Shown here: positions 17,682 through 40,634 of the stretch, in pieces
Position numbering within the stretch: position 1 is the first letter of the stretch
Layout of the letters: every line of letters starts with the position of its first letter
Source of the DNA: Nitrospinia bacterium
GTDB lineage: Bacteria; Nitrospinota; Nitrospinia; JACRGO01
Direction: 5' to 3'
Assembly: GCA_029261755.1 (NCBI GenBank)
Contig: JAJDAS010000068.1
Coordinates: forward strand, 1 to 40,634
Length of the DNA: 40,634 nucleotides
Made by a program: the position numbers and the translations under genes
The notes under the pieces: model-generated
Told to the model about the DNA's origin: nothing
The model's input: the letters and a program-made list of their open reading frames with translations, nothing else
Databases searched by the model: none

Positions 17682-17692
17682 GGAGAAATGAA

Positions 17693-18073
17693 ATGCCAAA
17701 GATATTGATCGTGGATGATGAACCTCACATCAGGCTTCTTTTGGAGCAGACCCTGGAAGAGTTTGAGGATGAAGGTGTTGATATTTTAATCGCCGAAAAT
17801 GGGGAGGCTGGCCTGGAGCTGATCAAGTCGGAAAAACCGGAATTGGTTTTTCTGGACGTGATGATGCCAAAAATGAATGGTTTTGAGGTGTGCGACACAG
17901 TAAAAAACAAGTTGGGAATGAAGGACGTTCATATCATCATGCTTACGGCCAAGGGGCAGGAGTTCGACAAAGAAAAAGGGGCAGAGGTAGGTTGCGACTT
18001 GTATTTAACCAAACCTTTTGATCCGGATCATATCGTGGAAAAGGCTTCGGAGGTTTTGGGAATGGAATTGTAG
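17693..18073 (+). CDS. Single-domain (CheY-like) response regulator
   Basis: 'KILIVDDEPHIR', 'VFLDVMMPKMNG', 'IMLTAKG', 'YLTKPF'. 126 aa. Starts 12 nt after the hybrid kinase stop. Confidence 0.9.
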   Translation: MPKILIVDDEPHIRLLLEQTLEEFEDEGVDILIAENGEAGLELIKSEKPELVFLDVMMPKMNGFEVCDTVKNKLGMKDVHIIMLTAKGQEFDKEKGAEVGCDLYLTKPFDPDHIVEKASEVLGMEL

Positions 18074-18079
18074 CGTTCA

Positions 18080-19534
18080 CTATTTCAGCGGCAGCCGGAT
18101 TACGAAATTCGCCCCGTTAAACCCTTCCACTCCGGAATAATTTCCATTTACGGCCTTGATGCTTCCGCTATGCTCTTCTACCATGCTCTTCGTGATGGCC
18201 AGCCCCAAGCCCGTGCCTCTCTTTTTTCCTTTGGTCACGAAAGGCTCAAATAAGTCATCAATAATATCATCAGGGATTCCCTCTCCCGTATCTGAAAACA
18301 CTATTTCAAGGCTGTCAGGTTGGACCAGCCGAGTCAGCGCCAAAAATCTCCCACCACTGGCCAAAACTTCCTTTGCGTTCCCGGAAATATTGAATACAGC
18401 CCTTTGAAACCTGTCACGGTCAATATTAAAATCGCCGCTATAGCTAAGCCTGGTTTTCACTTCAATGTTTTTCGACGCCATATCACTTTCAATAAAAGAA
18501 ATAATCTCTCCAAAAAAGCTTTCCACGCTGGTTTTTTCCTTAACAATTACAATTTTATTTCCACGTGAAAAGACCAGGAGGTCTTCAACCATATCAACCA
18601 GTTTGTGCACGGATTTTACTACCATGTCGCTGAAACGGGCTCTCTCTTCAGAGGTTAATTCCATTGCGAGCAGTTCAGCAAACCCTTGAATTGCGGCCAT
18701 AGGGTTCTTCAAGTCATGAATAATCCCCCCGGCCATCTGGCCGATGAGGGTGAATTTCTCATTGGTTATTTTTTCTTCAAGAAGGCGGAAATTCTCGATA
18801 CCTTCCGCAATCAAAGTAGATATTGAACTAAGAAGGGATTCATCCTCACTGGTAAATATTCCCTTAGTTTTGTTACTTAAGTTTAAGACACCCACAACCT
18901 TTTCCTTTTGCTTTAAAGGCAGGCATAACAAAGATTCGATATTGACCTTGCCTCCCTTGATGAAATCAGGATGTTTTTCGGGTTCATTGGTAATGACGGG
19001 GTTTCCGCTTTCCATCACCTTGTCGGCAATTCCTCCATTGTTTCCCGTCAGCCATGATTCTTCGTTAAGAACTTTCCCGAAAGCGGTTTTGAGGATAAAC
19101 TTGCGGCTTTTAGGTTCCATCACCATGATGGAACAATTTTCAACACTTATTTCCTGGCTAATGATCTGAGTGGCGGTAGAAAGAATATGGTCAAGATCAA
19201 CCGATGAGCTAAAAATTTCGTTTAATTTTGCAAGAAAACTCAGCTCTTTGTATTTTTGGAGTGCGTGGGTGGTGAGGCTTTTCTTTTCAAGTATATTTTG
19301 TAGGGCTATGGTAAAGAGCTTTACAGCTTTCGGGTTTTCGGCTCCGCCGGAAAAATAACCAATAAGGGTATTCTCAAAAATAACCTCATTACGTTCATAT
19401 TCTGTATGCCATTCCGTTTTAAATTCCGATGTTTCATAGAGAGGGGATCCATCAACCCTATAAAAACAAATGGGTCCCGCCAAAGTGGAAAGGCTGTCGC
19501 AAATCAATTTAATGTCTTTTTTCCTGATGATCAT
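18080..19534 (-). CDS. GAF-domain sensor histidine kinase (cytoplasmic)
   Basis: No TM segment. The GAF-like middle region includes 'VENCSIMVMEP' and 'LCLPLKQKEKVVGVLNL'. H-box 'IIHDLKNPM', G1 'DTGEGI', G2 'GTGLGLAITKSM'. Confidence 0.85.
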   Translation of the reverse strand: MIIRKKDIKLICDSLSTLAGPICFYRVDGSPLYETSEFKTEWHTEYERNEVIFENTLIGYFSGGAENPKAVKLFTIALQNILEKKSLTTHALQKYKELSFLAKLNEIFSSSVDLDHILSTATQIISQEISVENCSIMVMEPKSRKFILKTAFGKVLNEESWLTGNNGGIADKVMESGNPVITNEPEKHPDFIKGGKVNIESLLCLPLKQKEKVVGVLNLSNKTKGIFTSEDESLLSSISTLIAEGIENFRLLEEKITNEKFTLIGQMAGGIIHDLKNPMAAIQGFAELLAMELTSEERARFSDMVVKSVHKLVDMVEDLLVFSRGNKIVIVKEKTSVESFFGEIISFIESDMASKNIEVKTRLSYSGDFNIDRDRFQRAVFNISGNAKEVLASGGRFLALTRLVQPDSLEIVFSDTGEGIPDDIIDDLFEPFVTKGKKRGTGLGLAITKSMVEEHSGSIKAVNGNYSGVEGFNGANFVIRLPLK

Positions 19535-19972: not shown

Positions 19973-20286
19973 CGTTCCCAGGCTCTGCCTCAATGGCATT
20001 AAGTTAAGGAAATTTTTCCGGTTTTGTCCCGGAGGGACAGCCGAAATTAGCCCAGCAATTCATTGCTGGGTAAAGGACCCAAATAATAAAGTCCCGTAGG
20101 GACGACTGAATCCCAGGGTTCGTTCCACATCGCTTTTCAGCCGTCCCTCCGGGACTTAAAAATCTCTGGCGGCAGACCCAGCGATAAATCGCTGGGCTAT
20201 TTTCGATTGTCCCTCTGGGACAAAAAAGAATCAAACCCCAAACCAAAAAGCTTAACTTAACGCCAGTGAGGCTCTACCTGGGAATG
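19973..20286. repeat. MITE-like element: about 36-bp terminal inverted repeats enclosing an inverted pair of about 80-nt stem-loop units
   Basis: TIRs are cgttcccaggctctgcctcaatggcattaagttaag (19973-20008) and cttaacttaacgccagtgaggctctacctgggaatg (20251-20286), matching at 29 of 36 positions when one is reverse-complemented. Inside are GTCCC-N3-GGGAC hairpins at 20026, 20091, 20143 and 20209, and cccagc-N8-gctggg hairpins at 20051-20070 and 20177-20196. Unit 20026-20103 is the inverted copy of unit 20143-20221. Confidence 0.7.
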
Positions 20287-27106: not shown

Positions 27107-28780
27107 ATGTCAGAAGAAGACTTTTTGTTTGCCAAAGAAGATACAGATATAAATACAGGTGCCTGGAAAGTGCTCGTTGTGGATGATGAAAAAGACGTCC
27201 ATGATTTGACTAGCCTTGTTCTCTCCGATTTCAAATATCTTGGGAAATCTCTCCGGTTTTTGAATGCCCTATCGGGTGAAGAAGGAAGAAAAATCATAGA
27301 AGAAAACTCCGACATCGCCATGATTTTGCTTGACGTGGTTATGGAAACGGATGACGCGGGTCTGAAACTGGTGGATTTCATCCGCAAGGAAAAGGGGCTT
27401 CATGCCGTTCGTATCATCTTGAGAACAGGTCAACCCGGAAGCGCACCAGAGCGTAGCGTTATTGACAATTACGACATTGACGGCTATAAGGCAAAAACCG
27501 AACTAACGTCCCAAAAACTCTACACGACTGTTAGGAGCGCCCTGAAAAATTTTAACGATATCCGTATTGCGGAAGAAAGCCAACGTAACCTGAAAATTGC
27601 CGAGGAAACATCAGAGCTTAGGGAAAGCCTGACTTCCATGATCATCCACGACCTAAAAAACCCCCTTTCTACTATTCGGTCCGTTCTGGAGCTATGGAAA
27701 TCAAACAGCCTTTTCTCCATTGACCCTGACCTGTTTTTCCAGCTAAAGCTTATCTCGCAAGCCTCGGAAACGATTTCCGAGATGGTGCTTGAGCAATTGA
27801 GTCTTTCTCAACTGGAAGCCGGGAGATATGAACCCAAGAATGAACTTGTTGATCTCAACCAGCTTGCACGTTTCATTTACCTAAGCAATTCCCAGGATTT
27901 TGATGATTCTCTGAAGTTTGAATTTTACGCCTCTCCAACCGTCTTTCCTCAACTCTACCAGGACAAAGAACTTATTCGAAGGACTGTGACCAATCTTTTT
28001 AGCAACGCTATTAGGCATACTCCCAAAGGATTTGTAAAAATATCTTTTGAATATGACGAAGGAACCGAAACATTAACGATTTCCGTTTCCGATTCGGGAA
28101 TAGGAATCAAGGAAGAAGATATTCCCCACCTTTTTGACAAATTTTATCAGGCGGTTAGCCATCATAAAAAAAGTTCTAATTTCGGGATCGGCTTAAGTTT
28201 TTGCGATTTTGCGGTAAAAGCCATGGGTGGGACCATTAGTGTTAAGAGCGTCATTGGACAGGGGACGGATTTCATTATTTCCATCCCCGCTAAAAAAGGA
28301 GAGAAGACATGCGAACCCTATGAACTTCCCTCTTTGGAGCCGGTAAAGAAAGAGGCCCTCCAACAAGAACCGCAGGATCGGAAAGGACCAGGCCAAGAAG
28401 AATCGGGCTCGCCTGAAGACTTAGGAATTAAAGTTCTCCTCGTAGACGACAGCTCCACCATCAGAAAAATAATGACCGCGTTTTTGAAAAAATTTGGCAT
28501 TTTCCAGGTAGACGAAGCCAGAGATGGAAAATTGGGAGTGGATAAAATCAGTGAAAATCCTTATGATCTGGTCTTTTTTGATATCAGTATGCCGATAATG
28601 GGCGGGCTTGAGGCCGCAAAGATAGTAAAATCAAAATTTCCCGATCTGCGCATTGTGATGCTAACCGCTGAATTCCAAAAAAGGGAAGAAGCAAAAATCA
28701 TAGGCGTAACCTCTTTTTTAACAAAACCGTTTACTTTTGATAGTATCCAAGAGTGCTTGAAAAACTTAGGTATCATTTAG
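27107..28780 (+). CDS. Receiver('RTGQPG' type)-histidine kinase-receiver hybrid
   Basis: N-terminal REC variant: 'WKVLVVDDEKDV', 'ILLDVVMETDDAG', 'VRIILRTGQPGSAPE', 'YDIDGYKAKTELT'. H-box 'IIHDLKNPL', N 'NLFSNAIRHTP', G1 'DSGIGI'. C-terminal canonical REC: 'VLLVDDSS', 'VFFDISMPIMGG', 'TKPF'. Confidence 0.88.
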   Translation: MSEEDFLFAKEDTDINTGAWKVLVVDDEKDVHDLTSLVLSDFKYLGKSLRFLNALSGEEGRKIIEENSDIAMILLDVVMETDDAGLKLVDFIRKEKGLHAVRIILRTGQPGSAPERSVIDNYDIDGYKAKTELTSQKLYTTVRSALKNFNDIRIAEESQRNLKIAEETSELRESLTSMIIHDLKNPLSTIRSVLELWKSNSLFSIDPDLFFQLKLISQASETISEMVLEQLSLSQLEAGRYEPKNELVDLNQLARFIYLSNSQDFDDSLKFEFYASPTVFPQLYQDKELIRRTVTNLFSNAIRHTPKGFVKISFEYDEGTETLTISVSDSGIGIKEEDIPHLFDKFYQAVSHHKKSSNFGIGLSFCDFAVKAMGGTISVKSVIGQGTDFIISIPAKKGEKTCEPYELPSLEPVKKEALQQEPQDRKGPGQEESGSPEDLGIKVLLVDDSSTIRKIMTAFLKKFGIFQVDEARDGKLGVDKISENPYDLVFFDISMPIMGGLEAAKIVKSKFPDLRIVMLTAEFQKREEAKIIGVTSFLTKPFTFDSIQECLKNLGII

Positions 28781-29061
28781 AGCATTAAAAAAAAGATAGC
28801 GGCATATTCTTTGCAATATTAACAAAACGGCTAAACTATTAACAAAGCAAGAGTTACTATGAATTTTACTTAGAAGCTTTTGAATTCGGCGCGCATTTAA
28901 ATTTGTCGAGAAGTTTATTTGCCTGAATATACCGGGACAGCCGTGCAATCTGCCATGGCAATTTGCATGATTTATGCATTTTACAAGACTTCAAGTCCAA
29001 TCATTTCGAATATCGAGCTTTAGGAGGGTTTTATAAATTGCCTGTTGCCAAAGAAAATCAA

Positions 29062-30387
29062 ATGTTAAATAGCGAACTGATTTTCGCTGATGAAAATTCC
29101 GGCGAGGATATGCAAGACCAGGGGACCTGGAAGGTAATGATTGTGGACGATGAACCGGAGGTTCATAGTGTTACGGAACTGGCTCTTGGAAATTTTGAAT
29201 TTGAAGGGAAACCACTGGAATTCATTAATGCATACTCCGGAGAAGAGGCGAAGCTATTAATCCAGGACCACTTCGACACTGCGCTGATCCTTCTGGATGT
29301 GGTTATGGAGAAGGATGACTCTGGCCTCAAGTTCGTACAATACGTCCGGAATGAGTTGAAGCATTATCTTGTGAGAATCATTTTACGAACCGGACAGCCG
29401 GGGTACGCGCCTGAAAAGCAGGTCATAGTGGATTACGATATCAACGACTATAAGTCTAAGGCGGAGCTTACAGCAACCAATCTCTTTGCCTCGGTTGTAG
29501 CGGCGTTGAGGGGATCTCGGGATTTAAGGTCCCTGGAAAAAACCAGAAATGAATTAGAAGAAATTGCAAAAGCCGCCGGGCAGTTTGTACCTATTGAGTT
29601 TTTAAAGCACTTAGAAAAGAAAAGCATTGTGGATGTAAAACTGGGAGATTGCGTCCAGCTTAATATGTCGGTTCTTTTTGCGGATATTCGTTCTTTTGCT
29701 TCCCTTTCGGAAAATATGAGCCCTCAGGAAAATTTCCAATTCCTGAATTCCTTCCTAAAGCTTATGGGGCCTCACATTACGGAACATAATGGCTTTATCG
29801 ATAAGTACATAGGCGATGCGATCATGTCCTTATTTGACTCACCGGAAAACGCGGTTTCAGCAGCCATTGCCATGCTCCGGGAGCTTCGTGACTTTAATGA
29901 AGGGCGTGGGAAGGCCGGTGATCCTCTTATTCGCATTGGAACCGGAATCAATACCGGGACCCTTATGTTGGGAACCATCGGCGGGATTAACCGCATGGAA
30001 GGGACCGTTATCAGCGATGCGGTCAATCTGGCATCGCGCATTGAACAACTTACAAAAGCCTATAAGACGCCGCTTTTAATCAGTGAAAAAACCTACTCGG
30101 GATTGCCCGATCCCGGCAAATTTTGTATTCGATTTCTTGATCGCGTGAAGGTTAAAGGCAAATCCCAAGGGATTGCGGTTTATGAGGTTTTTGACGCGGA
30201 TTCTCCCGCTGTTCGGGAAGGCAAAATAAAAACACAAGAGATTTTTGAAAAAGCCTGGTCGCTTTATGGTCAAAAGGATTTGAGTGGGGCCAGGGGCTTG
30301 TTTGAGGAATGCCTGGCAGAAAATCCGGGAGATACCGTGGCCAAAATCTATGTGGAAAGATGCTTGAATCCAGTGAGAAGCGGTTAG
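29062..30387 (+). CDS. Receiver('RTGQPG' type)-class III adenylate/guanylate cyclase
   Basis: Start set at ATG 29062 by analogy with the paralogue N-termini (acidic leader, then 'WKVMIVDDEPEV'); the track start at 28963 is a TTG. 'VRIILRTGQPGYAPE' is present. Cyclase domain: 'VLFADIRSFASLSE', 'KYIGDAIMSLF', 'IRIGTGINTGTLMLGTIGG', 'TVISDAVNLASRIE'. A TPR-like C-terminal tail follows. Confidence 0.88.
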   Translation: MLNSELIFADENSGEDMQDQGTWKVMIVDDEPEVHSVTELALGNFEFEGKPLEFINAYSGEEAKLLIQDHFDTALILLDVVMEKDDSGLKFVQYVRNELKHYLVRIILRTGQPGYAPEKQVIVDYDINDYKSKAELTATNLFASVVAALRGSRDLRSLEKTRNELEEIAKAAGQFVPIEFLKHLEKKSIVDVKLGDCVQLNMSVLFADIRSFASLSENMSPQENFQFLNSFLKLMGPHITEHNGFIDKYIGDAIMSLFDSPENAVSAAIAMLRELRDFNEGRGKAGDPLIRIGTGINTGTLMLGTIGGINRMEGTVISDAVNLASRIEQLTKAYKTPLLISEKTYSGLPDPGKFCIRFLDRVKVKGKSQGIAVYEVFDADSPAVREGKIKTQEIFEKAWSLYGQKDLSGARGLFEECLAENPGDTVAKIYVERCLNPVRSG

Positions 30388-30451
30388 ATACTTACACGTT
30401 AAGTCTGAGAAGTCATCTCTCCGAATTAAAAAATAACTCAACTGACCCATT

Positions 30452-31690
30452 ATGTTTGAAGAAGATTCCGATTTATTGATTTTCAAGGAAGAAGAGGAAG
30501 GTACCGAATATCCTTCGGAAGCTCCCTGGAAAGTAATGATTGTGGATGATGAAGAAGACGTCCATGAAATGACGAAGATGACTCTTGACTCCATTACCTT
30601 CGAAAATAAGGGATTGCAGTTTGTCAGTGCCTTTTCCGGCGGGGAAGCCAAAAGACTCCTGAGTGAAAATTCCGACATAGCCTTAATCCTTTTGGACGTT
30701 GTAATGGAGACCGATGACGCAGGTCTGCGTGTGGTCAAATTTATTCGTCAGGACCAGGAGAATCATATGGTTCGGATCATTCTTCGCACAGGCCAGCCTG
30801 GTGTTGCCCCGGAAAATAAGGTGGTCGTGGATTACGATATCAATGACTATAAAGAAAAGGCGGAACTTACCTCTCAAAAGATGTTTACCTCAGTTATATC
30901 CTCCCTAAGGTCTTACCGTAACATAACGGAACTTGTGGAACAGGATAGGGCCGAACAGGAGATGAAAAAGGCGAAGGAAATAGCCGAGGAAAAGGCCAAG
31001 CTCAAAGACCTTTTTGTTTCCATAGTGGCGCATGATTTAAGAAATCCCTTGTCTACGATCAAGGGTTTTGTAGAACTTGTCGTTGGAGATAAAGCACATC
31101 CTGTTTCTGAAAAACATTCCCAATGTCTCACGCGAACTTTAAATGTCACGACAAACCTGATTGAAATGACCAAGAGACTTCTCTCTGTCGGCATCATGAG
31201 TTCCGGTAAGATGGAGCTTCACAAAGAACTTTTTGATGGCAACGAGACAGTGGCAATGCTTGTCGAACGCTTAGAGCCCTCGGCTGAAGGGAAAGGGGTC
31301 GAACTTATTAACAGCGTGTCAAAAACTAAAATCTTCGCGGATCGTGAACTCTTTAACCAAGTCATTCATAACTTGGTATCAAACGCTATGAAGTTCAGTA
31401 ACCCGAACGGCAAAATCCTCATATTTACTGTGGAGGGAGAACCCACCTGCATAGCCGTGAAAGACGAGGGTACGGGAATTGGTGAGAAAATCTTGCCGGA
31501 TATATTTAAGCATGAGATAAAAACCACTAGACTTGGAACAGCAGGTGAAAGAGGAACGGGACTTGGCCTCCCTTACTGCAAAGACATTATGGAGGCCCAC
31601 GGCGGGACACTGACCATTGAAACGACTCCCGAGAAAGGGAGCATTTTTTACGCCCGACTGCCGGAAGGAGAAAAAATCACTGACCATTAA
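30452..31690 (+). CDS. Receiver('RTGQPG' type)-histidine kinase
   Basis: 'WKVMIVDDEEDV', 'ILLDVVMETDDAG', 'VRIILRTGQPGVAPE'. H-box 'VAHDLRNPL', N 'NLVSNAMKFSNP', G1 'DEGTGI', G2 'GTGLGLPYCKDI'. Confidence 0.9.
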   Translation: MFEEDSDLLIFKEEEEGTEYPSEAPWKVMIVDDEEDVHEMTKMTLDSITFENKGLQFVSAFSGGEAKRLLSENSDIALILLDVVMETDDAGLRVVKFIRQDQENHMVRIILRTGQPGVAPENKVVVDYDINDYKEKAELTSQKMFTSVISSLRSYRNITELVEQDRAEQEMKKAKEIAEEKAKLKDLFVSIVAHDLRNPLSTIKGFVELVVGDKAHPVSEKHSQCLTRTLNVTTNLIEMTKRLLSVGIMSSGKMELHKELFDGNETVAMLVERLEPSAEGKGVELINSVSKTKIFADRELFNQVIHNLVSNAMKFSNPNGKILIFTVEGEPTCIAVKDEGTGIGEKILPDIFKHEIKTTRLGTAGERGTGLGLPYCKDIMEAHGGTLTIETTPEKGSIFYARLPEGEKITDH

Positions 31691-31752: not shown

Positions 31753-34700
31753 TTATTTGCCGGTAATTCTCATGGGCAAATGAAGGGTAAAGGTGGTCCC
31801 CTTCTCCGGTTCGCTTTCACACTCTACCCTGCCCCCCAAGGTTTTATTCACGATATTGAAAACGATGTTCAGACCCAACCCTGTTCCCCCAGTCCCACGC
31901 TTAGTGGTAAAGAACGGATCAAAGATTTTTTTCAGATTTTCCTCCGGTATACCTTTGCCGTCATCAATGTACTTCAAAACAACCTCATGGCCTTCCCGAG
32001 AGGCGGTTATTTTTATATTTCCGCTTTCATCGTTTGTAAAGGCATGGTTTATGGAGTTCATGATGAAATTGGTTATCACCTGGGCCAATGCTCCGGGAAA
32101 ACTATCCATTTGAATATCTTCCGAGCAGATCACTTCCACCTGGTGGGACCTCTTTTTTAGTTCCGGGTTGAGGCTCATCACAATATCATTAAGATAAGAT
32201 TTAAGGTTAAAGACCCTCTTTTCCTGACTAGTCTGGTCCGCTGAAACCATCTTGAAGCTTTTCACGAGATCCGCTGTCCGGAGAAGATTTTTTAAGATCA
32301 AGTTGCAGCTTTTGCCGGCTTCCGAGAAATATTTCACCAAATCCGTTTTTTTCATGGCGTTTTTTTCAAAATCAGAGGTAATGCTTTTGGTGGATCCTTC
32401 AAAGTAAGAAGCCGCTGTCACTCCAATGCCTATGGGAGTGTTGATTTCATGGGCCACGCCTGCTACCAACTGTCCGAGGGAGGCCATTTTTTCCGACTGA
32501 ACCAGTTGTTCCTGGCTTTCTTCCAGCTCCCGGTTGGTCTTTTTCAGTTCGTCCATGGTCTCTCGGAGATCTGCGGTGCGTTCATCCACTTTCTGTTCCA
32601 GGGTGTGGCTGTATTCCTCCAGTTTTTCGTGGGACTTTCTTAGGTTTTCTGTTGTGGCCTCCAGGTTGGTATAGAGGCGAGCGTTTTCAATGGAGATGGC
32701 TACCTGGGAGGAGAGCAGACCCAAGACCTCCAATCGGTCCGGGGTAAAAGCCCCAGTGGTGAGATTGTTTTCCAGGTAAAAAATGCCGGTTAGTTTTCCC
32801 TTGTATACTATGGGGACGCACATGATGGATTTGGGCCTGTTTTTCAGGACATAGGAGTCATTGGTAAACATCCCTTCATTGGCAACGTCATTCAAGACCA
32901 CATTTACTCCTATCCTTTTCACGTAACGGATGATTGCCTCAGCAAGATCCTGTCTTGTTTCAATGGGAATTGACTGCAACACGGCCACATCCTCTTTGTC
33001 CACGCGTCCCTCTGCTTCGATTACCAGTTGGCCTTCCTTTTCCAGTACAAGGAAACCTTTTTGGGCGCCTGCGTTTTCCATGACAACCTTCACGAGCCTT
33101 TCCAATAACTTTTCCAACATGATTTCACCGGAAAGGGCCTGGGATGCCTTAATAACCGTAGCCACATCCAAGACCTCCGAGGTGCTGTCGGAAGATGAAG
33201 TGGAGTCTGCCGTGGTATCAGTGGTGGACAAGGTCAACTCTTGTGTTGTTGTCATACCCGCCGAAGACCTGGTGGATGCGATTTGCGGATATTTTTCATC
33301 GATACATTTTACCTTTGCAAAGGCGCCCCATTTGAGGTAAGCGAAACGGGCCTCCCTTATATAGGCCCTGCCGATGACGTCGGATCCATTAGCCAGATGA
33401 AACTTTGCGGCCAACTCATTGGCAATGGCCTCATCCTGAACAAATTCATTAGTCCGGGCGGACTTGATAGATCGGTCGTATAACTTTAACGCCTCGTTTA
33501 CATCTCCGGAAATCCTGGCCATTTCAGCTACAATCAGCAGGTATTGATGGAGGAAATTTTCCGGGCAGTTATCGGCCCATCTTTTCATCTTTTTCTGATT
33601 TCTTCTCAAGGTCTTCAGGAACATTCTTTTTTCTCCGGCCGAGGCAGATGGGTAGAGGGCCGTGAGAACCAATGAATAGTAAAAATAATGGGTGGGAACA
33701 AAGACCTGACCCATGGAGACCTCTATAATCATATCCGACTCCATAGCCATTTTTTGAGCCGTTGCAAAGTCTTCAAATATAAATAGGGTCTGACATTTAT
33801 TAATGTAATACCATGAGACGGGTACTTTTTCACTGCTTTTTTTCATCTCTTCCAGATGGCGGTCCTCATCAAAGTTGTCATCGCTGAAGCTTCCCGGCTC
33901 ACGAGTGGAACCTTTAAGGCTCAACACTTTTTTCTGAGTTAAAAGAAAAAAGTTGGCGGTGTCGTAATCTTTTATTTTATTCGCGAAATCGAGGTATTTT
34001 TGGGCCTTTTGAAAGAGGTCGTCCAGAGGGAGGCCCTTTACATTTAAGGAAAAAATTAAGGCATCGGCGGAATATCCGGCGAAAATCAAATTTCCGCAAT
34101 CCATGGAATGTTGATAAGCCTTTGAACAAAAGTCCAGGTTCGTTCGGATATGGCTTCTCCAGATATTCAGGAAAATTCCGAACATGCTTTGGCATTTTCC
34201 TATGTAATTGATGTTCTGATATTTCTGGCTGACCTTCAATGCCAGTTGTCCAAACTCATAACCGGCCTTGTATCTTCCGAATCCCGATCCAATGATCAGC
34301 CCAAAGCAGCTATATGCGTATGAAGAGATGTCAGCGTTTCCATATTTCAAGGATATATTGACCATTTTCATGGTCACCAAGGCCAGTAGGTCCTGGCTGG
34401 TGAAATAGGCCGGGACCGTTAAATTCATCAAAAGACTCATAATGGATAATTTCTCCGGCTCTTTCAAATCCGGTAAATCAATGAGATTCTCGATTTTTTT
34501 ATTACGAAGTTTCCATATAATTTTTAACAATTCGGGAACTATGTTTACGGGGCCAGGTTTGGCTGGTATGATCTCTCCGAACAATTTCAAGCCCTGTATG
34601 CCCAGTTCCACGGCTTTATGGTTATCCCCGCTATTGGTGCATAAGACCATTTCCAAGTTGAATACTTTCGCTTTTTCCTGTCTGGTTTTCGCGTTTTTTA

Positions 34701-37218
34701 GGATCAGGTCAAAGAATTTTTTCGCCTCCTCAAAGTTTCCGCAAAGGTATTCGCATTCGGCGCGTTCCATGTGGAGACCGATAGCCCGGTTATAACAGGA
34801 CTGGAAGCAATCTTCACTCAGCAAGTCAATGCCCATGGATAAATATTTCAATGCGGCTTCATAAGCGGTGGAAGCCTTGGCCTTTCTGGCTGCCTTGAGG
34901 TTTAGTTCGGCCAGTCGGCATCGTTCTTCCGGGTCCGTTATCAACTCTGTGCTTAAATTGAGTTGTTTCAGGATGTCAAAAACGGATTCTTCCAGCTTGT
35001 CATCCCTGGTATTTTTAAGAAGAAGCCGCCCCGTTTTACAATGAATCTCTTTTTTATAGTCTTCCGGGATCAAAGAATATACCGCCTCCTGCACTCGGTC
35101 ATGTGAAAACTGATAAAAAACCATGCGATCTGCGGATTCCGGGGAATTGACAGCTTTAGGCTCGTAATTTTGGAAAACTTTGTAAGAATCCCCTATTGGG
35201 AGGAGCAAGTCCTCCTGAAGCGCCTCCCAAAGGTGATCGGCCGTTTCCTCCGGTGTTTTTTCAGAAATAATGGACAGGTTTTTTAAGTCGAATCGGTTTC
35301 CTATACATGCGGCAAGTTTCAAGGCGTTCCGGGTATTTTCGGATAACTTTTGAATTTTTCCCGTCATAAGTTCCACCACATTGCCGGTAAATCCCTTGGC
35401 GTTTATTTTGTCCAAGTCCCACTGGCATTGGCCATCGGTCTGGTTAAATTCGAGCAACCCTTCCTTGTAGAGCATTAAAAGGAACTCTCTCACAAAGAAG
35501 GGGTTCCCGTCGGTTTTCCTGGCCAAGAGTTCCGCAAGCGCGGTTGTCTTTTCCCGCGAACAGTTGAAAGTATCGGATGCCATCTGGTTGAGATCGGCAA
35601 CCTTGAGAGATCCCAGAGAGATCTTGTGGATAACGCCCCCATCTTTTTGAATATCATCCAGGGTATGCGGCAAAGCATGACCGGTATCGATTTCATTATC
35701 CCTATACGCGCCGATCATGAGCAGAAATCGGGTGTCGGGGTCGGTGGTGAGGAGATGGATCAGGTGCAGAGAGGCTGAATCCGCCCATTGCAAATCATCA
35801 AGAAATATGGCGAGGGGATGGTCCGGTTGGGCGAAGACCCGGACAAAATCACGAAACACGGAATTAAAGCGGTTTTGGGACTCAGCCGGGGACAGTTCCG
35901 GGACATCCGGCTGCGTGCCGATAATGAGTTCCACTTCCTGGATAACATCGATGATAACCCGGCCATTAGGACCCAGAGAGGCCATGAGTTTTTCTTTCCA
36001 TACTGTTATCTTTTCTTCGCGTTCAGTTATAAGCTGTCGAATCAGGTCCTGGAAAGCCAGGATCAGGGAAGAATAAGGAATATTTCGCTTGAACTGGTCA
36101 AATTTTCCGGAGATAAAATACCCCTTTTCCCGGACAATGGGTTTATGAATTTCATGGATAAGTGCCGATTTGCCGATCCCGGAAAAACCGGTTACCAGCA
36201 TAAGTTCCTTGGTTCCTCGATTAACCCGCTCAAAGGAATCCATGAGGATGGAGATTTCTGCTTCCCTTCCGTAAAGTTTTTCCGGGATTTGAAAGGTATT
36301 GGAGAAGTCCTTTTGGCCGGGAACAAAATTTTCTATTTTCCCGGAGGATTCCCACTGGTCCATGCATTCTTCCAGGTCAGCTTTGATGCCATAAGCACTC
36401 TGGTATCTTCCTTCTGCTGTTTTGGATAGAAGTTTCAGCACAATCTCCGAAATGGCCTTGGGTATTTCTTTTTTTAGCTCATGGGGCGGTCTTGGCTGAC
36501 GGGCAATGTGGCAATGAACCATCTCCATGGGGTCATCAGCGTGGAAAGGAAGTTCGGCAGTGATCATTTCGTAAAAGGTAACCCCAAGGGAGTATAAATC
36601 GGAACGGTAATCCACGGACCGGTTCATCCTGCCGGTCTGTTCCGGAGCGATATAAGGCAAGGATCCTTCCAGTTTACTGGGATTATCGGTCTTTCCGCTC
36701 TCTCTGGAAAGACGCGAGGCAATGCCGAAGTCGGTAATCTTTACCTCTTCGGTTTTGATGTTGACAATGATGTTGGCCGGCTTGATGTCCTTATGAATAA
36801 TATGATTGTTGTGAATGGCCCCAAGGGTTTCCGATAGCCGGATGCCTATCCTGAAAAAATTCTTTAAACTCATTCCTTTGGCTGCCACATCGGTTTGACC
36901 CGATGCTTCCGGAGGGTGAATTCCGTCCGAAGAAATCAGATTTTTCAGAGACTCTCCTCCCATATCTTCAAAGACCAGGGCCATGCTGTTTTGGGAGTCT
37001 TCCAGGGCATAGGTTTTAACTACGCCATCTACTGCCAGGTCTTTCGTAATTTGAAATTGATGTTTTAAGCGCGCAATATCGTTTAAAGAAGGATACTCGG
37101 CTTTAAGGACTTTCAAGATAACCGGTTTTTTGTCACGGTTCCTTTCCCCTCTATAAATGAGGATTTTTGGTCCTTCGTAGATTTTTTCTTTGATTTGGTA
37201 GGCTGCGATAGATAGCAT
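31753..37218 (-). CDS. Giant multidomain Ser/Thr protein kinase - AAA/STAND-like ATPase - helical/TPR-like region - GAF - histidine kinase
   Basis: 1821 aa. Hanks kinase motifs 'HKDIKPANI', 'DFG', 'YIAPEQ'. Walker A 'GFSGIGKSAL'. A long helical repeat region follows, then a GAF region with 'MCVPIVYKGKLTGIFYLEN'. H-box 'GVAHEINTPIG', G1 'DDGKGIP', G2 'GTGGTGLGLNIV'. Confidence 0.9.
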   Translation of the reverse strand: MLSIAAYQIKEKIYEGPKILIYRGERNRDKKPVILKVLKAEYPSLNDIARLKHQFQITKDLAVDGVVKTYALEDSQNSMALVFEDMGGESLKNLISSDGIHPPEASGQTDVAAKGMSLKNFFRIGIRLSETLGAIHNNHIIHKDIKPANIIVNIKTEEVKITDFGIASRLSRESGKTDNPSKLEGSLPYIAPEQTGRMNRSVDYRSDLYSLGVTFYEMITAELPFHADDPMEMVHCHIARQPRPPHELKKEIPKAISEIVLKLLSKTAEGRYQSAYGIKADLEECMDQWESSGKIENFVPGQKDFSNTFQIPEKLYGREAEISILMDSFERVNRGTKELMLVTGFSGIGKSALIHEIHKPIVREKGYFISGKFDQFKRNIPYSSLILAFQDLIRQLITEREEKITVWKEKLMASLGPNGRVIIDVIQEVELIIGTQPDVPELSPAESQNRFNSVFRDFVRVFAQPDHPLAIFLDDLQWADSASLHLIHLLTTDPDTRFLLMIGAYRDNEIDTGHALPHTLDDIQKDGGVIHKISLGSLKVADLNQMASDTFNCSREKTTALAELLARKTDGNPFFVREFLLMLYKEGLLEFNQTDGQCQWDLDKINAKGFTGNVVELMTGKIQKLSENTRNALKLAACIGNRFDLKNLSIISEKTPEETADHLWEALQEDLLLPIGDSYKVFQNYEPKAVNSPESADRMVFYQFSHDRVQEAVYSLIPEDYKKEIHCKTGRLLLKNTRDDKLEESVFDILKQLNLSTELITDPEERCRLAELNLKAARKAKASTAYEAALKYLSMGIDLLSEDCFQSCYNRAIGLHMERAECEYLCGNFEEAKKFFDLILKNAKTRQEKAKVFNLEMVLCTNSGDNHKAVELGIQGLKLFGEIIPAKPGPVNIVPELLKIIWKLRNKKIENLIDLPDLKEPEKLSIMSLLMNLTVPAYFTSQDLLALVTMKMVNISLKYGNADISSYAYSCFGLIIGSGFGRYKAGYEFGQLALKVSQKYQNINYIGKCQSMFGIFLNIWRSHIRTNLDFCSKAYQHSMDCGNLIFAGYSADALIFSLNVKGLPLDDLFQKAQKYLDFANKIKDYDTANFFLLTQKKVLSLKGSTREPGSFSDDNFDEDRHLEEMKKSSEKVPVSWYYINKCQTLFIFEDFATAQKMAMESDMIIEVSMGQVFVPTHYFYYSLVLTALYPSASAGEKRMFLKTLRRNQKKMKRWADNCPENFLHQYLLIVAEMARISGDVNEALKLYDRSIKSARTNEFVQDEAIANELAAKFHLANGSDVIGRAYIREARFAYLKWGAFAKVKCIDEKYPQIASTRSSAGMTTTQELTLSTTDTTADSTSSSDSTSEVLDVATVIKASQALSGEIMLEKLLERLVKVVMENAGAQKGFLVLEKEGQLVIEAEGRVDKEDVAVLQSIPIETRQDLAEAIIRYVKRIGVNVVLNDVANEGMFTNDSYVLKNRPKSIMCVPIVYKGKLTGIFYLENNLTTGAFTPDRLEVLGLLSSQVAISIENARLYTNLEATTENLRKSHEKLEEYSHTLEQKVDERTADLRETMDELKKTNRELEESQEQLVQSEKMASLGQLVAGVAHEINTPIGIGVTAASYFEGSTKSITSDFEKNAMKKTDLVKYFSEAGKSCNLILKNLLRTADLVKSFKMVSADQTSQEKRVFNLKSYLNDIVMSLNPELKKRSHQVEVICSEDIQMDSFPGALAQVITNFIMNSINHAFTNDESGNIKITASREGHEVVLKYIDDGKGIPEENLKKIFDPFFTTKRGTGGTGLGLNIVFNIVNKTLGGRVECESEPEKGTTFTLHLPMRITGK

Positions 37219-37266: not shown

Positions 37267-37932
37267 TCAGGAAAACGCCTCTTCATGAACGATGAGGTTT
37301 TCCCCCGTTGTAGTAATATATCCCTGCTTCTTCATATTCTTTAACACCCTGGATACACTCTCCCTGGTAAGGCCTAACTTGGAAGAAATCTCGTGGGGAT
37401 GTGGGAAGTCTTCAATTTTAACTCCCTTTGTTATAGGTGTCCCGTCCTTCTTGGCTATTTCCATGATATAGGCAGCTACTCGTCCGGTGGCATCTAGGAA
37501 AGTCAGTGTGCCTACTTTTTTTGTTAAGTCCCTCAGCCTTTCGCAAAGCCTTTTGATAACTTTAATGGAAACGGCTGGATGGCCTTCCATGATTTCAAAA
37601 AGATCTTTCCCTTCAATGACCAAGAACTCGCAATTCGTCTTTGTAACTACACTGGATGACCTTGGCTTACCGTCTAATATGGCAATTTCTCCAAAAAAGT
37701 CTCCTTTTGAAAATTCGGAAAGAATGATCTCTTTCCCATCCTCTGAAAATAAAACAAAGTTTCCCTCACCGGACACCGTCATGAAAAAAGAATCTCCAGG
37801 CTCTCCTTCCTGGAAGACAATGCTTTTTTTTTGGAATTTCTTTCTTGTTGAAGAATGAAATACAAGGTCGAGCTCCTGCTCGTCCAAACCCGAGAAGAGA
37901 GGAATTTGGCTGATCATTTCCTTGCTATTCAT
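37267..37932 (-). CDS. Crp/FNR-family transcriptional regulator
   Basis: cNMP-binding domain: 'IPLFSGLDEQEL', 'FGEIAILDGKPRSSSV'. C-terminal HTH: 'HEISSKLGLTRESVSRVLKNMKKQG'. Start set at ATG 37932 (MNSKEMISQIPLF); the track start at 37983 adds 17 aa. Same strand as the giant kinase and 48 nt upstream of it. Confidence 0.85.
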   Translation of the reverse strand: MNSKEMISQIPLFSGLDEQELDLVFHSSTRKKFQKKSIVFQEGEPGDSFFMTVSGEGNFVLFSEDGKEIILSEFSKGDFFGEIAILDGKPRSSSVVTKTNCEFLVIEGKDLFEIMEGHPAVSIKVIKRLCERLRDLTKKVGTLTFLDATGRVAAYIMEIAKKDGTPITKGVKIEDFPHPHEISSKLGLTRESVSRVLKNMKKQGYITTTGENLIVHEEAFS

Positions 37933-38327
37933 ACCGTCACCTTTTTTGAAGTTTCCACTTAAAAGCAAACTGTGGTACCACATTCCGCAGAGGTCTTTGT
38001 TTTCCTGGGTATAAGATTATGGGTATTCTATAATAACAAGCTAACGTAGTCAAAATTCAAATCACAAAAAAAACAGATGCACGATGCTTGTTTGTCAATG
38101 GAATTACTTATTAGCAGTTACTTAGATGAACATTCTGAGAATTTATCTCTCGCAATCTAAAAATCCTTTGAAATCATAGACATGGAGCCGCGAATGAACG
38201 CGACTAAAGAAAAACCCAAAAACATTAGCGTAACAGCGAAAATAGCTGTAAAAAGGCCAGTAAATATTTTCAAATTGAAGTTCTTGCATTAAAAAATGTG
38301 GAAGGGGTATGATTAAACTTTCTTAAG

Positions 38328-40634
38328 ATGAAGTTTCAAGAAGAAAGGGAAAGGGAAGAAGCCCTCTCTCAAAACTTTAAAACTAATTCAATGTTATTTG
38401 TTACCCTAATTAATAAACATAACAAAGAAAAGAAGTTTTCTATTGAAAACAATGAAGATGTAACTGTTGGCAGATCTCCCGGGAATAAAATAACAATAGA
38501 CGGCAATGAGTTGTCCGTGTCGAGAAAGCAGCTTGTAATAACCAATGAGCAGGGGAAGTTCGTTCTACGAAATATTGGAGTTAACCCGGTAGGACTGAAT
38601 GGTTCTGTCGTTGAAGATACTGCGACATTAAATCATAACGACACAATAATCCTTGGTGAAAGTAAAATTATTTTCCAAGTTGACTCGAAAGAGGCCATTG
38701 TTAAGGAAGAAAATGATGATGGTAAAAACCCGACAATAATTATCCCATTTCAAAAAGTTAAATTAAAAGATGATCCTGAGCAAGAAAGCAAGGTCAATGG
38801 TGAAAAAGAAGAGAGCACACGATATATAAAAGTTCTAAAGCATGGAAAGTATATTGAGTCTCACTCAATCAAGGAAGGGGATGAATTAAAAGTCGGAAGA
38901 GTTTCAAACAACCACATTGTTCTAAAAGACCCGGAAATCTCAAGGTTACTTTTTATCATTTATCAAAAAGACAGCAATGTTTATGTTTCTTATGTTGGCA
39001 GGACCCCTGTTGAACTTGCGACAAGATTGCTTCCCCCAGGCAACAATTCTACAGAGAAATTTAACATTGGTGAAGAAATTAGTTTTCACACATTCCAGTT
39101 ACTTTTATCAGATAATAATGATCGGGATCCCATTGCTGTAAAACATCCTGAAAAGCTTGTAAAAGGAGGAGAAGACTCTGTTAGTTTTCAAAAATTCCAG
39201 TTCCATGATGAGGATGCGGATGATGCTGAAACTATATCTGAGTTAGGGGGAATTTTAGATGAGGGCAAAAATAAATACCGTTCCGTTGCTATTTTAGCGG
39301 GCGTTGTGGTGGTGATTGTTTTTGGGTGGCTGTTTTTGTTTTCTGACGAACAGGAGACATTTAATACTAATGGCGGCTTTATTGAGGGTGAGATAAGAAA
39401 AGTCAGTTTCCAAAAGAAATTCGATGTTCCCGGAATTATAAATTTCCTTGACCCAAGACCGGTAATGAGTAAGGTCTCAGGAAGAGTTATTAAGATTGGT
39501 TTTAAAGAAGGAAATTATGTGGATGCGGGTCAAATGCTTTTTAAGATTGAAAGCCTTGACCTTGAACAGCAACTTAAAGAAGCAAATATCGCTTTCCTTT
39601 CGGCAAAAGAGCAATCGCGTAAATTTCACAGTTGGGAACAATCCTCGGAATACCTCACCGCCAAAGCCGAACATTTAAATGTCATGGCAAATTACAGAAA
39701 AAAACAATCGTGGGAGGATACCCAGGAAATTAATGACGCAAAAAGGGCCATTAGCGACTCCGAAGCAAATATCAAAAACTTACGGAGCAAGATGGCAAAC
39801 TCTGAAAAGCTCTTTAATAAAGGTATTATTGCAAGAGATGAATTAGAAAGGGTCAAGGTCGATTATGGGGTGGCGGCCAATAATAATAGGAGCTTAAAGG
39901 AGAAATATCAATATGTTGTCAGATCATCAAAAGTGGACTCCAAAACCGCCAGGATTGAAAAAGCAAAGGCGGACAGGAATATGGAGTCGCGAAAAAAGAA
40001 CTTTTTCTCACAAAAAAAAATAGCGAGAATTAATTATGCAAAAGCCTCAAAAAACCTGGCGAGAATTAAAGACCTCATCGAAAACTCCCTTATTTTCTCA
40101 GATGTAAACGGCATCGTTAATTTTCCTGTTGGCTCCTCCGGCAAAAAAATAATTCTTGAGGGACAGATGATAAGCTCAGATAATGTCTTGGCGTATGTCG
40201 GCGATTTTCAAAACGTTGGTTTGAAGATTGAAATACCGGAATCGGAAATAAGCAAAATAAAAATAGGACAAGAAGTTAAGATAAGCGCTGAGATATTAAA
40301 AGGAAAAGCTTTAACTGGGGTTGTTTCCGAAATTGCCTCCAGCGCAACTATTAAGGAAAACGCTTCTTATTTTGATGTGAAAATAAAGATCAACATACCC
40401 TCTGAGTTAGAAAGAAAGATTCGAGTTGGCGCTTCAGCCTCGGCCTCGATTATTCTCGATGACGCGCCGCACGTCACGGCGGTCCCAATTACATCGATTA
40501 TTGAATATCAGGGGCAATCAGGCATCCTCATTTTAAAGGAAAATAAGGACATCAACTTTGTGCCGGTCTTAACTGGAATATCCAACCAGGATTACGTTCA
40601 GGTTACCGGGAATAATTTGTTAGTGGGAATGAAG
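38328..40634 (+). CDS. FHA-FHA-TM-HlyD-type membrane fusion (periplasmic adaptor) protein, 3' end outside the window
   Basis: Read by hand; it is missing from the ORF track because there is no stop before the window end (769 in-frame codons from ATG 38328). FHA1: 'VTVGRSPGNKITIDGNELSVSRKQLVI...NPVGLNGSVV...NDTIILGESKIIFQ'. FHA2: 'LKVGRVSNNHIVLKDPEISRLLFII...'. TM: 'VAILAGVVVVIVFGWLFLF'. Adaptor: lipoyl-like 'GRVIKIGFKEGNYVDAGQMLFKIE', a long coiled coil, 'IFSDVNGIV', 'IPESEISKIKIGQEVKI', 'VTAVPITSII'. The start codon is uncertain because the RBS is weak. Confidence 0.8.
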   Translation, partial: MKFQEEREREEALSQNFKTNSMLFVTLINKHNKEKKFSIENNEDVTVGRSPGNKITIDGNELSVSRKQLVITNEQGKFVLRNIGVNPVGLNGSVVEDTATLNHNDTIILGESKIIFQVDSKEAIVKEENDDGKNPTIIIPFQKVKLKDDPEQESKVNGEKEESTRYIKVLKHGKYIESHSIKEGDELKVGRVSNNHIVLKDPEISRLLFIIYQKDSNVYVSYVGRTPVELATRLLPPGNNSTEKFNIGEEISFHTFQLLLSDNNDRDPIAVKHPEKLVKGGEDSVSFQKFQFHDEDADDAETISELGGILDEGKNKYRSVAILAGVVVVIVFGWLFLFSDEQETFNTNGGFIEGEIRKVSFQKKFDVPGIINFLDPRPVMSKVSGRVIKIGFKEGNYVDAGQMLFKIESLDLEQQLKEANIAFLSAKEQSRKFHSWEQSSEYLTAKAEHLNVMANYRKKQSWEDTQEINDAKRAISDSEANIKNLRSKMANSEKLFNKGIIARDELERVKVDYGVAANNNRSLKEKYQYVVRSSKVDSKTARIEKAKADRNMESRKKNFFSQKKIARINYAKASKNLARIKDLIENSLIFSDVNGIVNFPVGSSGKKIILEGQMISSDNVLAYVGDFQNVGLKIEIPESEISKIKIGQEVKISAEILKGKALTGVVSEIASSATIKENASYFDVKIKINIPSELERKIRVGASASASIILDDAPHVTAVPITSIIEYQGQSGILILKENKDINFVPVLTGISNQDYVQVTGNNLLVGMK

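Follow-up and report, generated by a model that had tools for sequence, protein, structure and literature searches.

Contig JAJDAS010000068.1 of a Nitrospinia bacterium (assembly GCA_029261755.1) ends inside a gene whose predicted product joins a cytoplasmic FHA module to a single transmembrane (TM) helix and a periplasmic adaptor of the kind found in tripartite export pumps. We analyzed the whole 40634-nt contig, called the window below. As first described, the FHA-adaptor open reading frame (ORF) occupies 38328–40634 on the + strand, with 769 codons from an ATG start and a 3′ end open at the contig edge. On its 5′ side lie a relic of a gene for a TolC-like outer-membrane efflux protein (OEP), which it overlaps, a divergent gene for a Crp/FNR-type regulator, and a gene for a 1821-aa Hanks-type Ser/Thr kinase. 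Relatives are denoted below by protein (P) and locus (L) numbers.

An FHA-adaptor gene at the contig edge

The long reading frame is supported by base composition, by independent assemblies and by comparison with its closest relative. The 769-aa + strand ORF at 38328–40634 is recovered once open-ended ORFs are permitted; its absence from the supplied ORF track is explained by the frame running off the contig end. Local DNA has 37% G+C, and at ~0.077 stops per codon, as estimated from local base composition, a stop-free run of 769 codons has a chance of ~1e-27. Logan contigs from three independent public biofilm-metagenome runs match the adaptor region with 0 mismatches and 0 gaps, and the ORF listing agrees with the 769 uninterrupted codons that the original prediction had read from ATG 38328. 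Two of these contigs (X1 38989–39342 and X2 39244–39520) span the junction between the FHA, TM and adaptor parts. Because they cross it without gaps or mismatches, a frameshift between the FHA and adaptor halves is not supported, and the sequencing check proposed earlier for a split between the two parts reveals neither a stop nor a frameshift. The Logan contigs of the three runs (150–490 nt) end at 40577 and gave no extension past the window, and a 92-kb relative contig, walked via hydrogenase, gave no continuation of it, synteny having already diverged; among named homologs of the hydrogenase, the closest are from Omnitrophota/PVC, at only ~46–48% identity. Two X1 contigs match only from 38327 and 39060 on, preceded by 255 unrelated letters; most likely they mark de Bruijn branching toward other members of the community, or variation between strains. 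Over 491 codons aligned with the closest relative (L006), dN is ~0.23 and dS is saturated at ≥1.2 (nonsynonymous and synonymous divergence, respectively), which indicates that the adaptor gene is under purifying selection relative to L006.

The gene probably starts downstream of the ATG first proposed. ATG 38328 sits in the dead OEP tail and all homologs begin at M22 (the first residues of P0005, P0008 and the L004/L001 proteins align to the M22 column of the family alignment), which makes ATG 38391, 63 nt further on, the more probable start than the ATG chosen earlier. The probable coding region is thus 38391–40634 (+), 748 codons from M22; full-length relatives run 25–60 aa past the last residue in the window, and ~25–60 C-terminal codons appear to be cut off. 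There is no convincing ribosome-binding site before ATG 38328 or ATG 38391.

The cytoplasmic module (aa 22–315) contains one canonical FHA domain and one divergent relative of it. On the whole ORF, Pfam reports FHA at 48.9 bits over two stretches (cut-off 20.7), FHA_2 at 30.1 bits and Yop-YscD_cpl at 37.5 bits (cut-off 33.2), and the NCBIfam FHA model for TagH of type VI secretion systems (T6SS; TIGR03354) scores 48.5 bits. FHA1 (aa 22–119; 38391–38684, +) has G48-R49, S64-R65, N85 and N91-G92, with Gln67 for the usual His, and scores alone 40.8 bits against PF00498 (cut-off 20.7) and 34.6 bits against FHA_2. AlphaFold2 (AF2) models it as a β-sandwich with a predicted local distance difference test (pLDDT) of ~80–88, and Foldseek aligns it with GarA (6i2q_B; TMt 0.85, root-mean-square deviation [rmsd] 1.7 Å). 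Its G48-R49, S64-R65 and N85 line up with the G-R, S-R and N of GarA and are kept across the family. With the model of residues 1–315 as query, GarA/OdhI FHA domains match at TMt up to 0.87 and rmsd 1.6–1.8 Å, as does Rv1747 FHA-1.

FHA2 (aa 165–261; 38820–39110, +) keeps G190-R191 and S205-R206 and has lost the conserved Asn and His. Alone, it reaches 20.2 bits against PF00498, just below the cut-off of 20.7 and over profile positions 2–39 of 67 only, and 22.2 bits against Yop-YscD_cpl (cut-off 33.2); its counterparts in L003 and L004 score 12–15 bits against PF00498. The AF2 model is a β-sandwich with the strand order of FHA1 (pLDDT ~82–87), and the EssC tandem-FHA structures 5fwh and 1wv3 align with the 1–315 model over both domains (256–258 columns). 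Two FHA-like domains had been predicted: FHA1 is canonical apart from its His position, while FHA2 is degenerate and has an FHA-like fold rather than a full FHA domain. Its degeneration appears secondary, because the second FHA domain of P0006 is still canonical (the pair scores 106 bits).

Two disordered stretches accompany these domains. The inter-FHA linker (aa 120–164; 38685–38819, +; disordered at 121–161 in the AF2 model, pLDDT <30) contains a Thr followed by hydrophobic residues, T136 of 'PTIIIPF' (codon 38733–38735), and this motif is aligned in the window protein, L004, L001, L003 and P0008, with the variants 'STIIIP' in P0008, 'ETILGSF' in L004/L001 and 'KTMFISD' in L003. On the strength of this alignment T136 is a candidate phospho-acceptor. 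The second stretch is juxtamembrane (aa 262–315, with disorder at 270–319 in the AF2 model) and lies ahead of the TM helix.

The remainder of the protein resembles MacA. The single TM helix (aa ~316–339; 39273–39344, +) coincides with the one strongly hydrophobic segment (aa ~319–339), has a Kyte-Doolittle peak of 2.94 at aa 320–338 and is helical at 316–337 in the AF2 model (mean pLDDT 75 over the whole protein). It leads into a periplasmic adaptor (aa ~355–769; 39390–40634, +) with a membrane-proximal strand, a lipoyl domain, an α-hairpin, a β-barrel (~aa 620–720 in the model) and a membrane-proximal domain cut by the contig end. The hairpin is unusually long and spans aa 412–585 (nt 39561–40082), with modeled helices at 412–436/440–497 and 503–585 and ~85 residues per arm. 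Pfam matches are HlyD_D23 (52.8 bits, cut-off 30) and HlyD_3 (48.0 bits, cut-off 22.2). The top NCBIfam match is the resistance-nodulation-division (RND) model RND_mfp (TIGR01730), whose cut-off of 94.9 bits the protein, incomplete at its C-terminus because the contig stops, narrowly misses with 89.9 bits. Sequence matches of the adaptor part in the PDB are MacA and MexA, and Foldseek finds MacA in MacAB-TolC (9qgy_G, 2.9e-18), EmrA (4tko, 4.4e-18; rmsd 5.4 Å over 354 columns) and 5nik_D (6.3e-18). Pfam, hydrophobicity, AF2 and Foldseek thus concur with the predicted series of one TM helix and a periplasmic adaptor with lipoyl motif, long coiled coil and β-barrel. The label 'HlyD-type' is a loose one: the score of the type I HlyD model TIGR01843, 37.3 bits, lies far under its cut-off of 208.65, and the partners in relatives are MacB-type.

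Hairpin length varies within the family. The window protein and P0006 are longer than P0005 and P0007 by 21–26 residues in the ascending arm and 25 in the descending arm; in the window protein the insertions are aa 437–462 and 541–565 (nt ~39636–39713 and ~39948–40022), matched indels that alter the length of the hairpin. The OEPs of the family likewise come in different lengths: 498 aa, 659 aa and, in the form with an AMIN domain, 673 aa.

Operon partners, family size and the rearranged 5′ flank

In relatives, the FHA-adaptor gene lies among genes for the other parts of a tripartite exporter. Profile-guided scans found loci on a 72-kb metagenome contig (L001), on a short contig (L002), and in metagenome-assembled genomes from Nitrospirae (L003) and Syntrophorhabdaceae (L004). 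The order in L001/L004 is TolC-like OEP (498 aa), FHA-adaptor (759–760 aa), ATP-binding cassette (ABC) ATPase (227 aa) and MacB_PCD+FtsX permease (395 aa); in L003 it is OEP with AMIN domain (673 aa), adaptor, ATPase (226 aa) and permease (395 aa). The ATPase is also seen past the adaptor gene in L002, and a TolC-like OEP gene lies directly upstream in L006. A TolC-like gene is thus immediately 5′ of the adaptor gene in every relative with context, and a MacB-type ATPase and permease are 3′ of it wherever the DNA continues, the stop codon of one gene overlapping or abutting the start codon of the next. The best NCBIfam match of both ATPase and permease is MacB (PRK10535; 243 and 204 bits), and neither the 227-aa ATPase nor the 395-aa permease carries FHA. 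The export or efflux machine of the original prediction is recovered as an operon of OEP, FHA-adaptor, ABC ATPase and MacB permease genes in relatives, and the transporter genes expected downstream are present in L001, L004 and L003 (in L002, the ATPase). These gene orders indicate that the partner is a split MacB-type (type VII) ABC transporter in a MacAB-TolC-type pump, and neither RND nor HlyB-type; we regard it as very probable that the window protein is a TM-anchored MacA-like adaptor of a MacB/TolC-type pump.

Phosphosignaling genes adjoin the operon in one lineage. Within ~4 kb downstream of it, L001 has genes for an FHA-GerE/LuxR regulator (15704–16315, −), a 340-aa Hanks kinase (16426–17448; Pkinase 146 bits) and a PP2C phosphatase (17457–18248, −), and an orthologue of the FHA-LuxR regulator occurs in L004 (17252–17866), before that contig ends. 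Directly after the permease, L001/L004 encode one or two signal-peptide proteins of 441–445 aa with T2SS-T3SS_pil_N (and weak Big_2) matches (L001 14316–15641; L004 14276–15613 and 15847–17172). These have no NCBIfam match and might be either substrates exported by the pump or auxiliary components of it.

The FHA-adaptor design is very rare and unstudied. A HMMER scan of 1.84 billion (1.84e9) representative proteins returned 10,098 matches, of which only four (P0005–P0008) fall at E<1e-30, all with FHA-adaptor architecture apart from P0007 and the fragment P0008. P0005 (760 aa) is 39% identical to the window protein; P0006 has 808 aa; P0007, the L003 protein (642 aa), is without FHA1 and keeps only a degenerate FHA2; and P0008 is a 192-aa fragment with 58% identity. 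The survey of fusion frequency suggested earlier therefore yields four 50%-identity clusters in 1.84e9 representatives, all from uncultured anaerobes. Word-indexed protein search, with the single sequence or the family profile, gave nothing beyond distant plain adaptors, and a single-protein scan of genome contigs gave no match. Automatic names reflect one or both halves: the JGI name of the P0005 cluster is 'multidrug resistance efflux pump/pSer/pThr/pTyr-binding FHA protein', and NCBI names P0007 an RND adaptor. Adaptors fused to FHA, PAS or GAF domains were not described in any paper returned by our literature search.

Immediately upstream, the window retains the end of an OEP gene. Its last 46 codons (38250–38390, +) are interrupted by an in-frame TGA (38310–38312), and the original stop is lost. 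In tblastn, residues 614–659 of the L006 OEP (659 aa) match window positions 38250–38387 at 65% identity (E 5e-11); the relic translates as KKASKYFQIEVLALKNVEGV*LNFLKMKFQEEREREEALSQNFKTNS and the L006 OEP tail reads KKAVKDFQIAVLALKNVEGVLLDFLHIKFAEENEKEKVLYEKFKSN. More stops lie upstream of the TGA, the original stop has become a sense codon, and the 5′ 613 codons are missing. L006, an 8.5-kb contig with 68% nucleotide identity (window 38230–39911 vs L006 6814–8452), has an OEP gene that stops one base before the ATG of its FHA gene. Its own FHA-adaptor gene shifts frame within FHA2 (~7499–7554), near an A-run, so that the called product is the fragment P0008; the frame change reflects either faulty assembly or a pseudogene.

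A rearrangement explains the present neighbors of the adaptor gene. Logan contigs span the breakpoint at ~38230–38250 (X1 37799–38254, X2 37995–38294, X3 38199–38409), and because three runs cross it the junction is not a binning or assembly chimera. The comparison with L006 indicates that a lineage-specific deletion or rearrangement removed the OEP gene along with the ancestral promoter region, and it is this event that placed the adaptor gene beside the genes for the Crp regulator and the 1821-aa kinase. The divergent Crp/FNR-type regulator gene (37267–37983, −) has Pfam cNMP_binding and HTH_Crp_2 matches, which do not imply control of the adaptor gene; the interval 37984–38400 yielded neither an inverted repeat nor a Crp-type operator, and a promoter scan upstream of the adaptor gave no score beyond shuffles. 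Beyond it lies the 1821-aa kinase (31753–37218, −), with the Pfam order Hanks kinase, AAA_16, TPR, GAF, HisKA and HATPase_c. Exact look-ups of this kinase and of the Crp protein, the latter with two candidate starts, matched no record. With recognizable HKD, DFG and APE motifs and a Pkinase score of 123 bits, the kinase looks active. It is missing from the L006, L003 and L004 neighborhoods and shares only 29% identity with the kinase of L001. The original prediction called it an obvious candidate writer of the phosphorylation, a suggestion that is not supported, on three counts: its adjacency results from the rearrangement, it is not next to the L006 gene, and its identity to the L001 kinase is 29%. 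A receiver-fused class III nucleotide cyclase (28963–30387, in region 27107–31690) is encoded ~7 kb from the genes for the Crp regulator and for the giant kinase with its GAF domain. Cyclase, Crp regulator and kinase could form a local cyclic-nucleotide circuit, by synteny unrelated to the adaptor.

Proposed phosphothreonine control and competing readings

Among known systems, MacAB-TolC of E. coli and A. actinomycetemcomitans (PDB 5NIK, 9QGY, 3FPP, 4DK0) is closest in architecture. The window protein shares with MacA the N-terminal TM anchor and the lipoyl, hairpin, β-barrel and membrane-proximal domains, MacA provides its best sequence and fold matches, and the operons of its relatives likewise supply a TolC-like OEP and an ABC transporter of MacB type. 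Identity to MacA is only ~14–18%, however, and whereas MacA has few cytoplasmic residues, ~300 are present here, comprising two FHA domains and disordered linkers. The hairpin arms, at ~85 residues, are nearer to those of EmrA, and the MacB partner of the relatives is split into ATPase and permease genes.

On balance we lean toward reading the gene as the adaptor of a MacAB-TolC-type tripartite ABC exporter whose cytoplasmic FHA module makes it phosphothreonine-switched. Taken by itself, phosphothreonine-dependent gating of the pump is an even call, and phosphothreonine binding, its target and the direction of regulation are inferred. The MacB dimer is ringed by an adaptor hexamer, and the N-terminal region of MacA is required for stimulation of the MacB ATPase. 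The periplasmic part would form a hexameric tube joining the MacB-type transporter, built from a separate ATPase and a 4-TM permease, to the TolC-like channel. A Hanks-type Ser/Thr kinase would phosphorylate a Thr in the adaptor linker (candidate T136), in the ABC ATPase or in the kinase itself, and FHA1 would bind that phosphothreonine. Binding may then cluster or order the adaptor N-termini around the ATPase dimer, switching on pump assembly or ATPase stimulation, and a PP2C phosphatase would undo the switch. FHA2, without Asn and His, would more likely act as a phospho-independent scaffold. Gating by Ser/Thr phosphorylation, as originally predicted, thus keeps indirect support from the FHA-LuxR, kinase and PP2C genes of L001 and from the retained G-R, S-R and Asn of FHA1, but the neighboring kinase is not supported as its writer; the L001 cluster is the best, single-lineage support for phospho-control.

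Precedents exist for FHA domains on export machines and for cytoplasmic extensions of adaptors. To our knowledge, regulation of efflux and export pumps has mostly been considered transcriptional, and post-translational control via the adaptor is essentially unexplored. Rv1747 of M. tuberculosis (FHA-1 structure 6CCD) also places tandem FHA domains and a disordered, Thr-containing linker on the cytoplasmic side of an ABC exporter. In Rv1747, however, the two N-terminal FHA domains sit on a transporter with fused nucleotide-binding and transmembrane domains and no periplasmic adaptor, and the kinase gene shares an operon with the transporter gene, whereas here they sit on the adaptor of a tripartite pump and the FHA-adaptor operon has no kinase. 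A common logic of kinase-dependent positive regulation is plausible for the two, as phosphorylation of Rv1747 by PknF is positive regulation (PMC3138270). FHA or FHA-like domains also occur at the cytoplasmic face of other envelope-spanning export machines, as in T6SS Fha/TagH, YscD/PrgH of type III and EssC of type VII secretion systems, none of which is a membrane fusion protein adaptor. Among T6SS Fha, YscD/PrgH and EssC we know of phosphothreonine binding only for T6SS Fha. In that system Fha binds phosphothreonine on TssL, and secretion is thereby activated (PMC3953482). A 2021 review describes the TM-anchored adaptors of ABC, major facilitator superfamily and type I secretion pumps as having cytoplasmic domains of considerable size, whose structures are little known and on which substrate recognition and assembly depend (PMC8277102).

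Several observations weigh against phosphothreonine control in this protein. The conserved FHA His is Gln67 in FHA1 of all family members, FHA2 has 'GRTPV' at the Asn-loop position and 'SRLL' at the S-R/His site, and the FHA domains of YscD and EssC function without phosphothreonine. The flanks available for L003 and L006 show no kinase or PP2C gene; the co-occurrence with Hanks kinases that had been put forward for survey is seen in L001, and it comes from one lineage plus a nonsyntenic kinase in the window. The contig ends inside the adaptor gene and the partner ABC genes are known from relatives only. With its cognate OEP destroyed, the system in this organism could be impaired, and the literature searched reports no biochemistry on any member of the FHA-adaptor family. 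One alternative is therefore that the FHA domains are phospho-independent structural modules like those of YscD/PrgH and EssC, and that they would form a cytoplasmic ring or a docking platform for the ATPase, or recruit substrate, and need no kinase. FHA2 fits Yop-YscD_cpl as well as FHA and is without Asn and His, the tandem module aligns with the N-terminal tandem FHA of EssC (5fwh, 1wv3), and P0007, from a locus where, as in L006, no kinase is visible, has dropped FHA1 and retains the degenerate FHA2 alone. FHA1, however, keeps the phosphate-contacting set of G-R, S-R and Asn family-wide, both FHA domains of P0006 are canonical (106 bits), and genes for another FHA protein, a kinase and a PP2C phosphatase sit beside the L001 operon; a purely structural role seems to us rather unlikely.

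Decay of the locus would call into question the activity of the system altogether. The window would then hold a remnant that has lost its OEP gene and ancestral promoter, with an adaptor that is nonfunctional or unexpressed and a kinase whose adjacency is meaningless. The OEP relic with its internal stop and missing 5′ 613 codons, the lack of a recognizable ribosome-binding site at either candidate ATG, a promoter scan no better than shuffles, and the frameshift in FHA2 of the closest relative (L006) all fit such decay. Yet 748–769 codons are intact in AT-rich DNA, dN/dS against L006 is well below 1, and the 65% identity left in the relic suggests a fairly recent event. TolC-like channels, moreover, are often shared and encoded elsewhere, and we consider decay of the adaptor improbable. 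The pump type has also been weighed. Service to an RND pump or to an HlyB-type type I secretion system would accord with RND_mfp (TIGR01730) as top NCBIfam match (89.9 bits), with MexA and AcrA among the PDB matches and with a long hairpin like those of EmrA and HlyD. TIGR01730, however, is a broad subfamily model that includes MacA-like adaptors. A MacB-type ATPase and permease lie directly 3′ in three relatives with downstream DNA (the L001/L004/L002 lineage and L003), TIGR01843 stays far below its cut-off (37 vs 209 bits), and the protein is anchored by a TM helix, not through a lipobox; on these grounds we rejected both the RND and the type I secretion readings, whose probability is very small.

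Sensor-fused relatives and further features of the window

The FHA-adaptors belong to a larger group of adaptors with cytoplasmic extensions. Among the 150 best adaptor relatives, ~55 have at least 60 cytoplasmic residues ahead of the TM helix, and Pfam shows classes of ~585 aa with PAS (P0009, P0010, P0012, P0018 and P0027) and ~630–700 aa with GAF (P0024, P0026, P0049, P0051, P0073, P0093, P0113 and P0140). In a tree of the periplasmic part, the four FHA members form a clade (support 1.0) that is sister to six PAS-adaptors (support 0.81), and both are nested in a 66-member clade (support 0.98) with 30 PAS and 13 GAF members. The nearest adaptor relatives of the FHA branch (P0009, P0010, P0012, P0018, P0024, P0049 and others) thus have the same layout of cytoplasmic sensor, one TM helix and adaptor, with OEP and MacB-type partners. 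Unlike FHA, which reads phosphoproteins, PAS and GAF are small-ligand sensors, and these adaptors are far more numerous. L009 encodes an OEP, a PAS-adaptor and a MacB-type ATPase (57% identical to the L004 ATPase), and L007 a GAF-adaptor followed by a MacB-type permease. Because the PAS and GAF sister adaptors also pair with OEP and MacB-type genes, the cytoplasmic module appears to be a sensor that can be swapped within a single adaptor lineage of MacB-type pumps. This clade of sensor-fused (PAS/GAF) adaptors around the FHA branch is apparently undescribed.

A tentative extension of this pattern is that MacB-type tripartite pumps share an 'inside-out' mode of control, in which the adaptor N-terminus senses PAS or GAF ligands or, through FHA, phosphothreonine and gates assembly or ATP hydrolysis. 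The signal might, just as speculatively, be relayed via the single TM helix or via clustering of the six adaptor tails at the ATPase dimer. If such control exists, the FHA branch would provide the first example of direct read-out of Ser/Thr-kinase signaling by a periplasmic adaptor. An adaptor that reads phosphothreonine would tie Hanks-kinase signaling straight to a tripartite pump, and its PAS and GAF sisters would widen adaptor control to small-ligand sensing. Taken alone, the tiny FHA-adaptor family is a curiosity; the surrounding PAS/GAF clade broadens the question, and FHA-, PAS- and GAF-adaptors together would be a tractable model for signaling from the cytoplasm to a periplasm-spanning machine.

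Two further elements lie elsewhere in the window. The contig starts with a group II intron (RF02005, 126 bits) and its reverse-transcriptase ORF (RVT_1, 117.7 bits), at 44–299 and 492–1934, respectively. The Acido-Lenti-1 RNA motif (RF01687) occurs twice, in inverted orientation, at 20025–20070 (−) and 20177–20222 (+), with 48.9 and 41.8 bits, in a repeat-rich gap before a CheY/cytochrome cassette.

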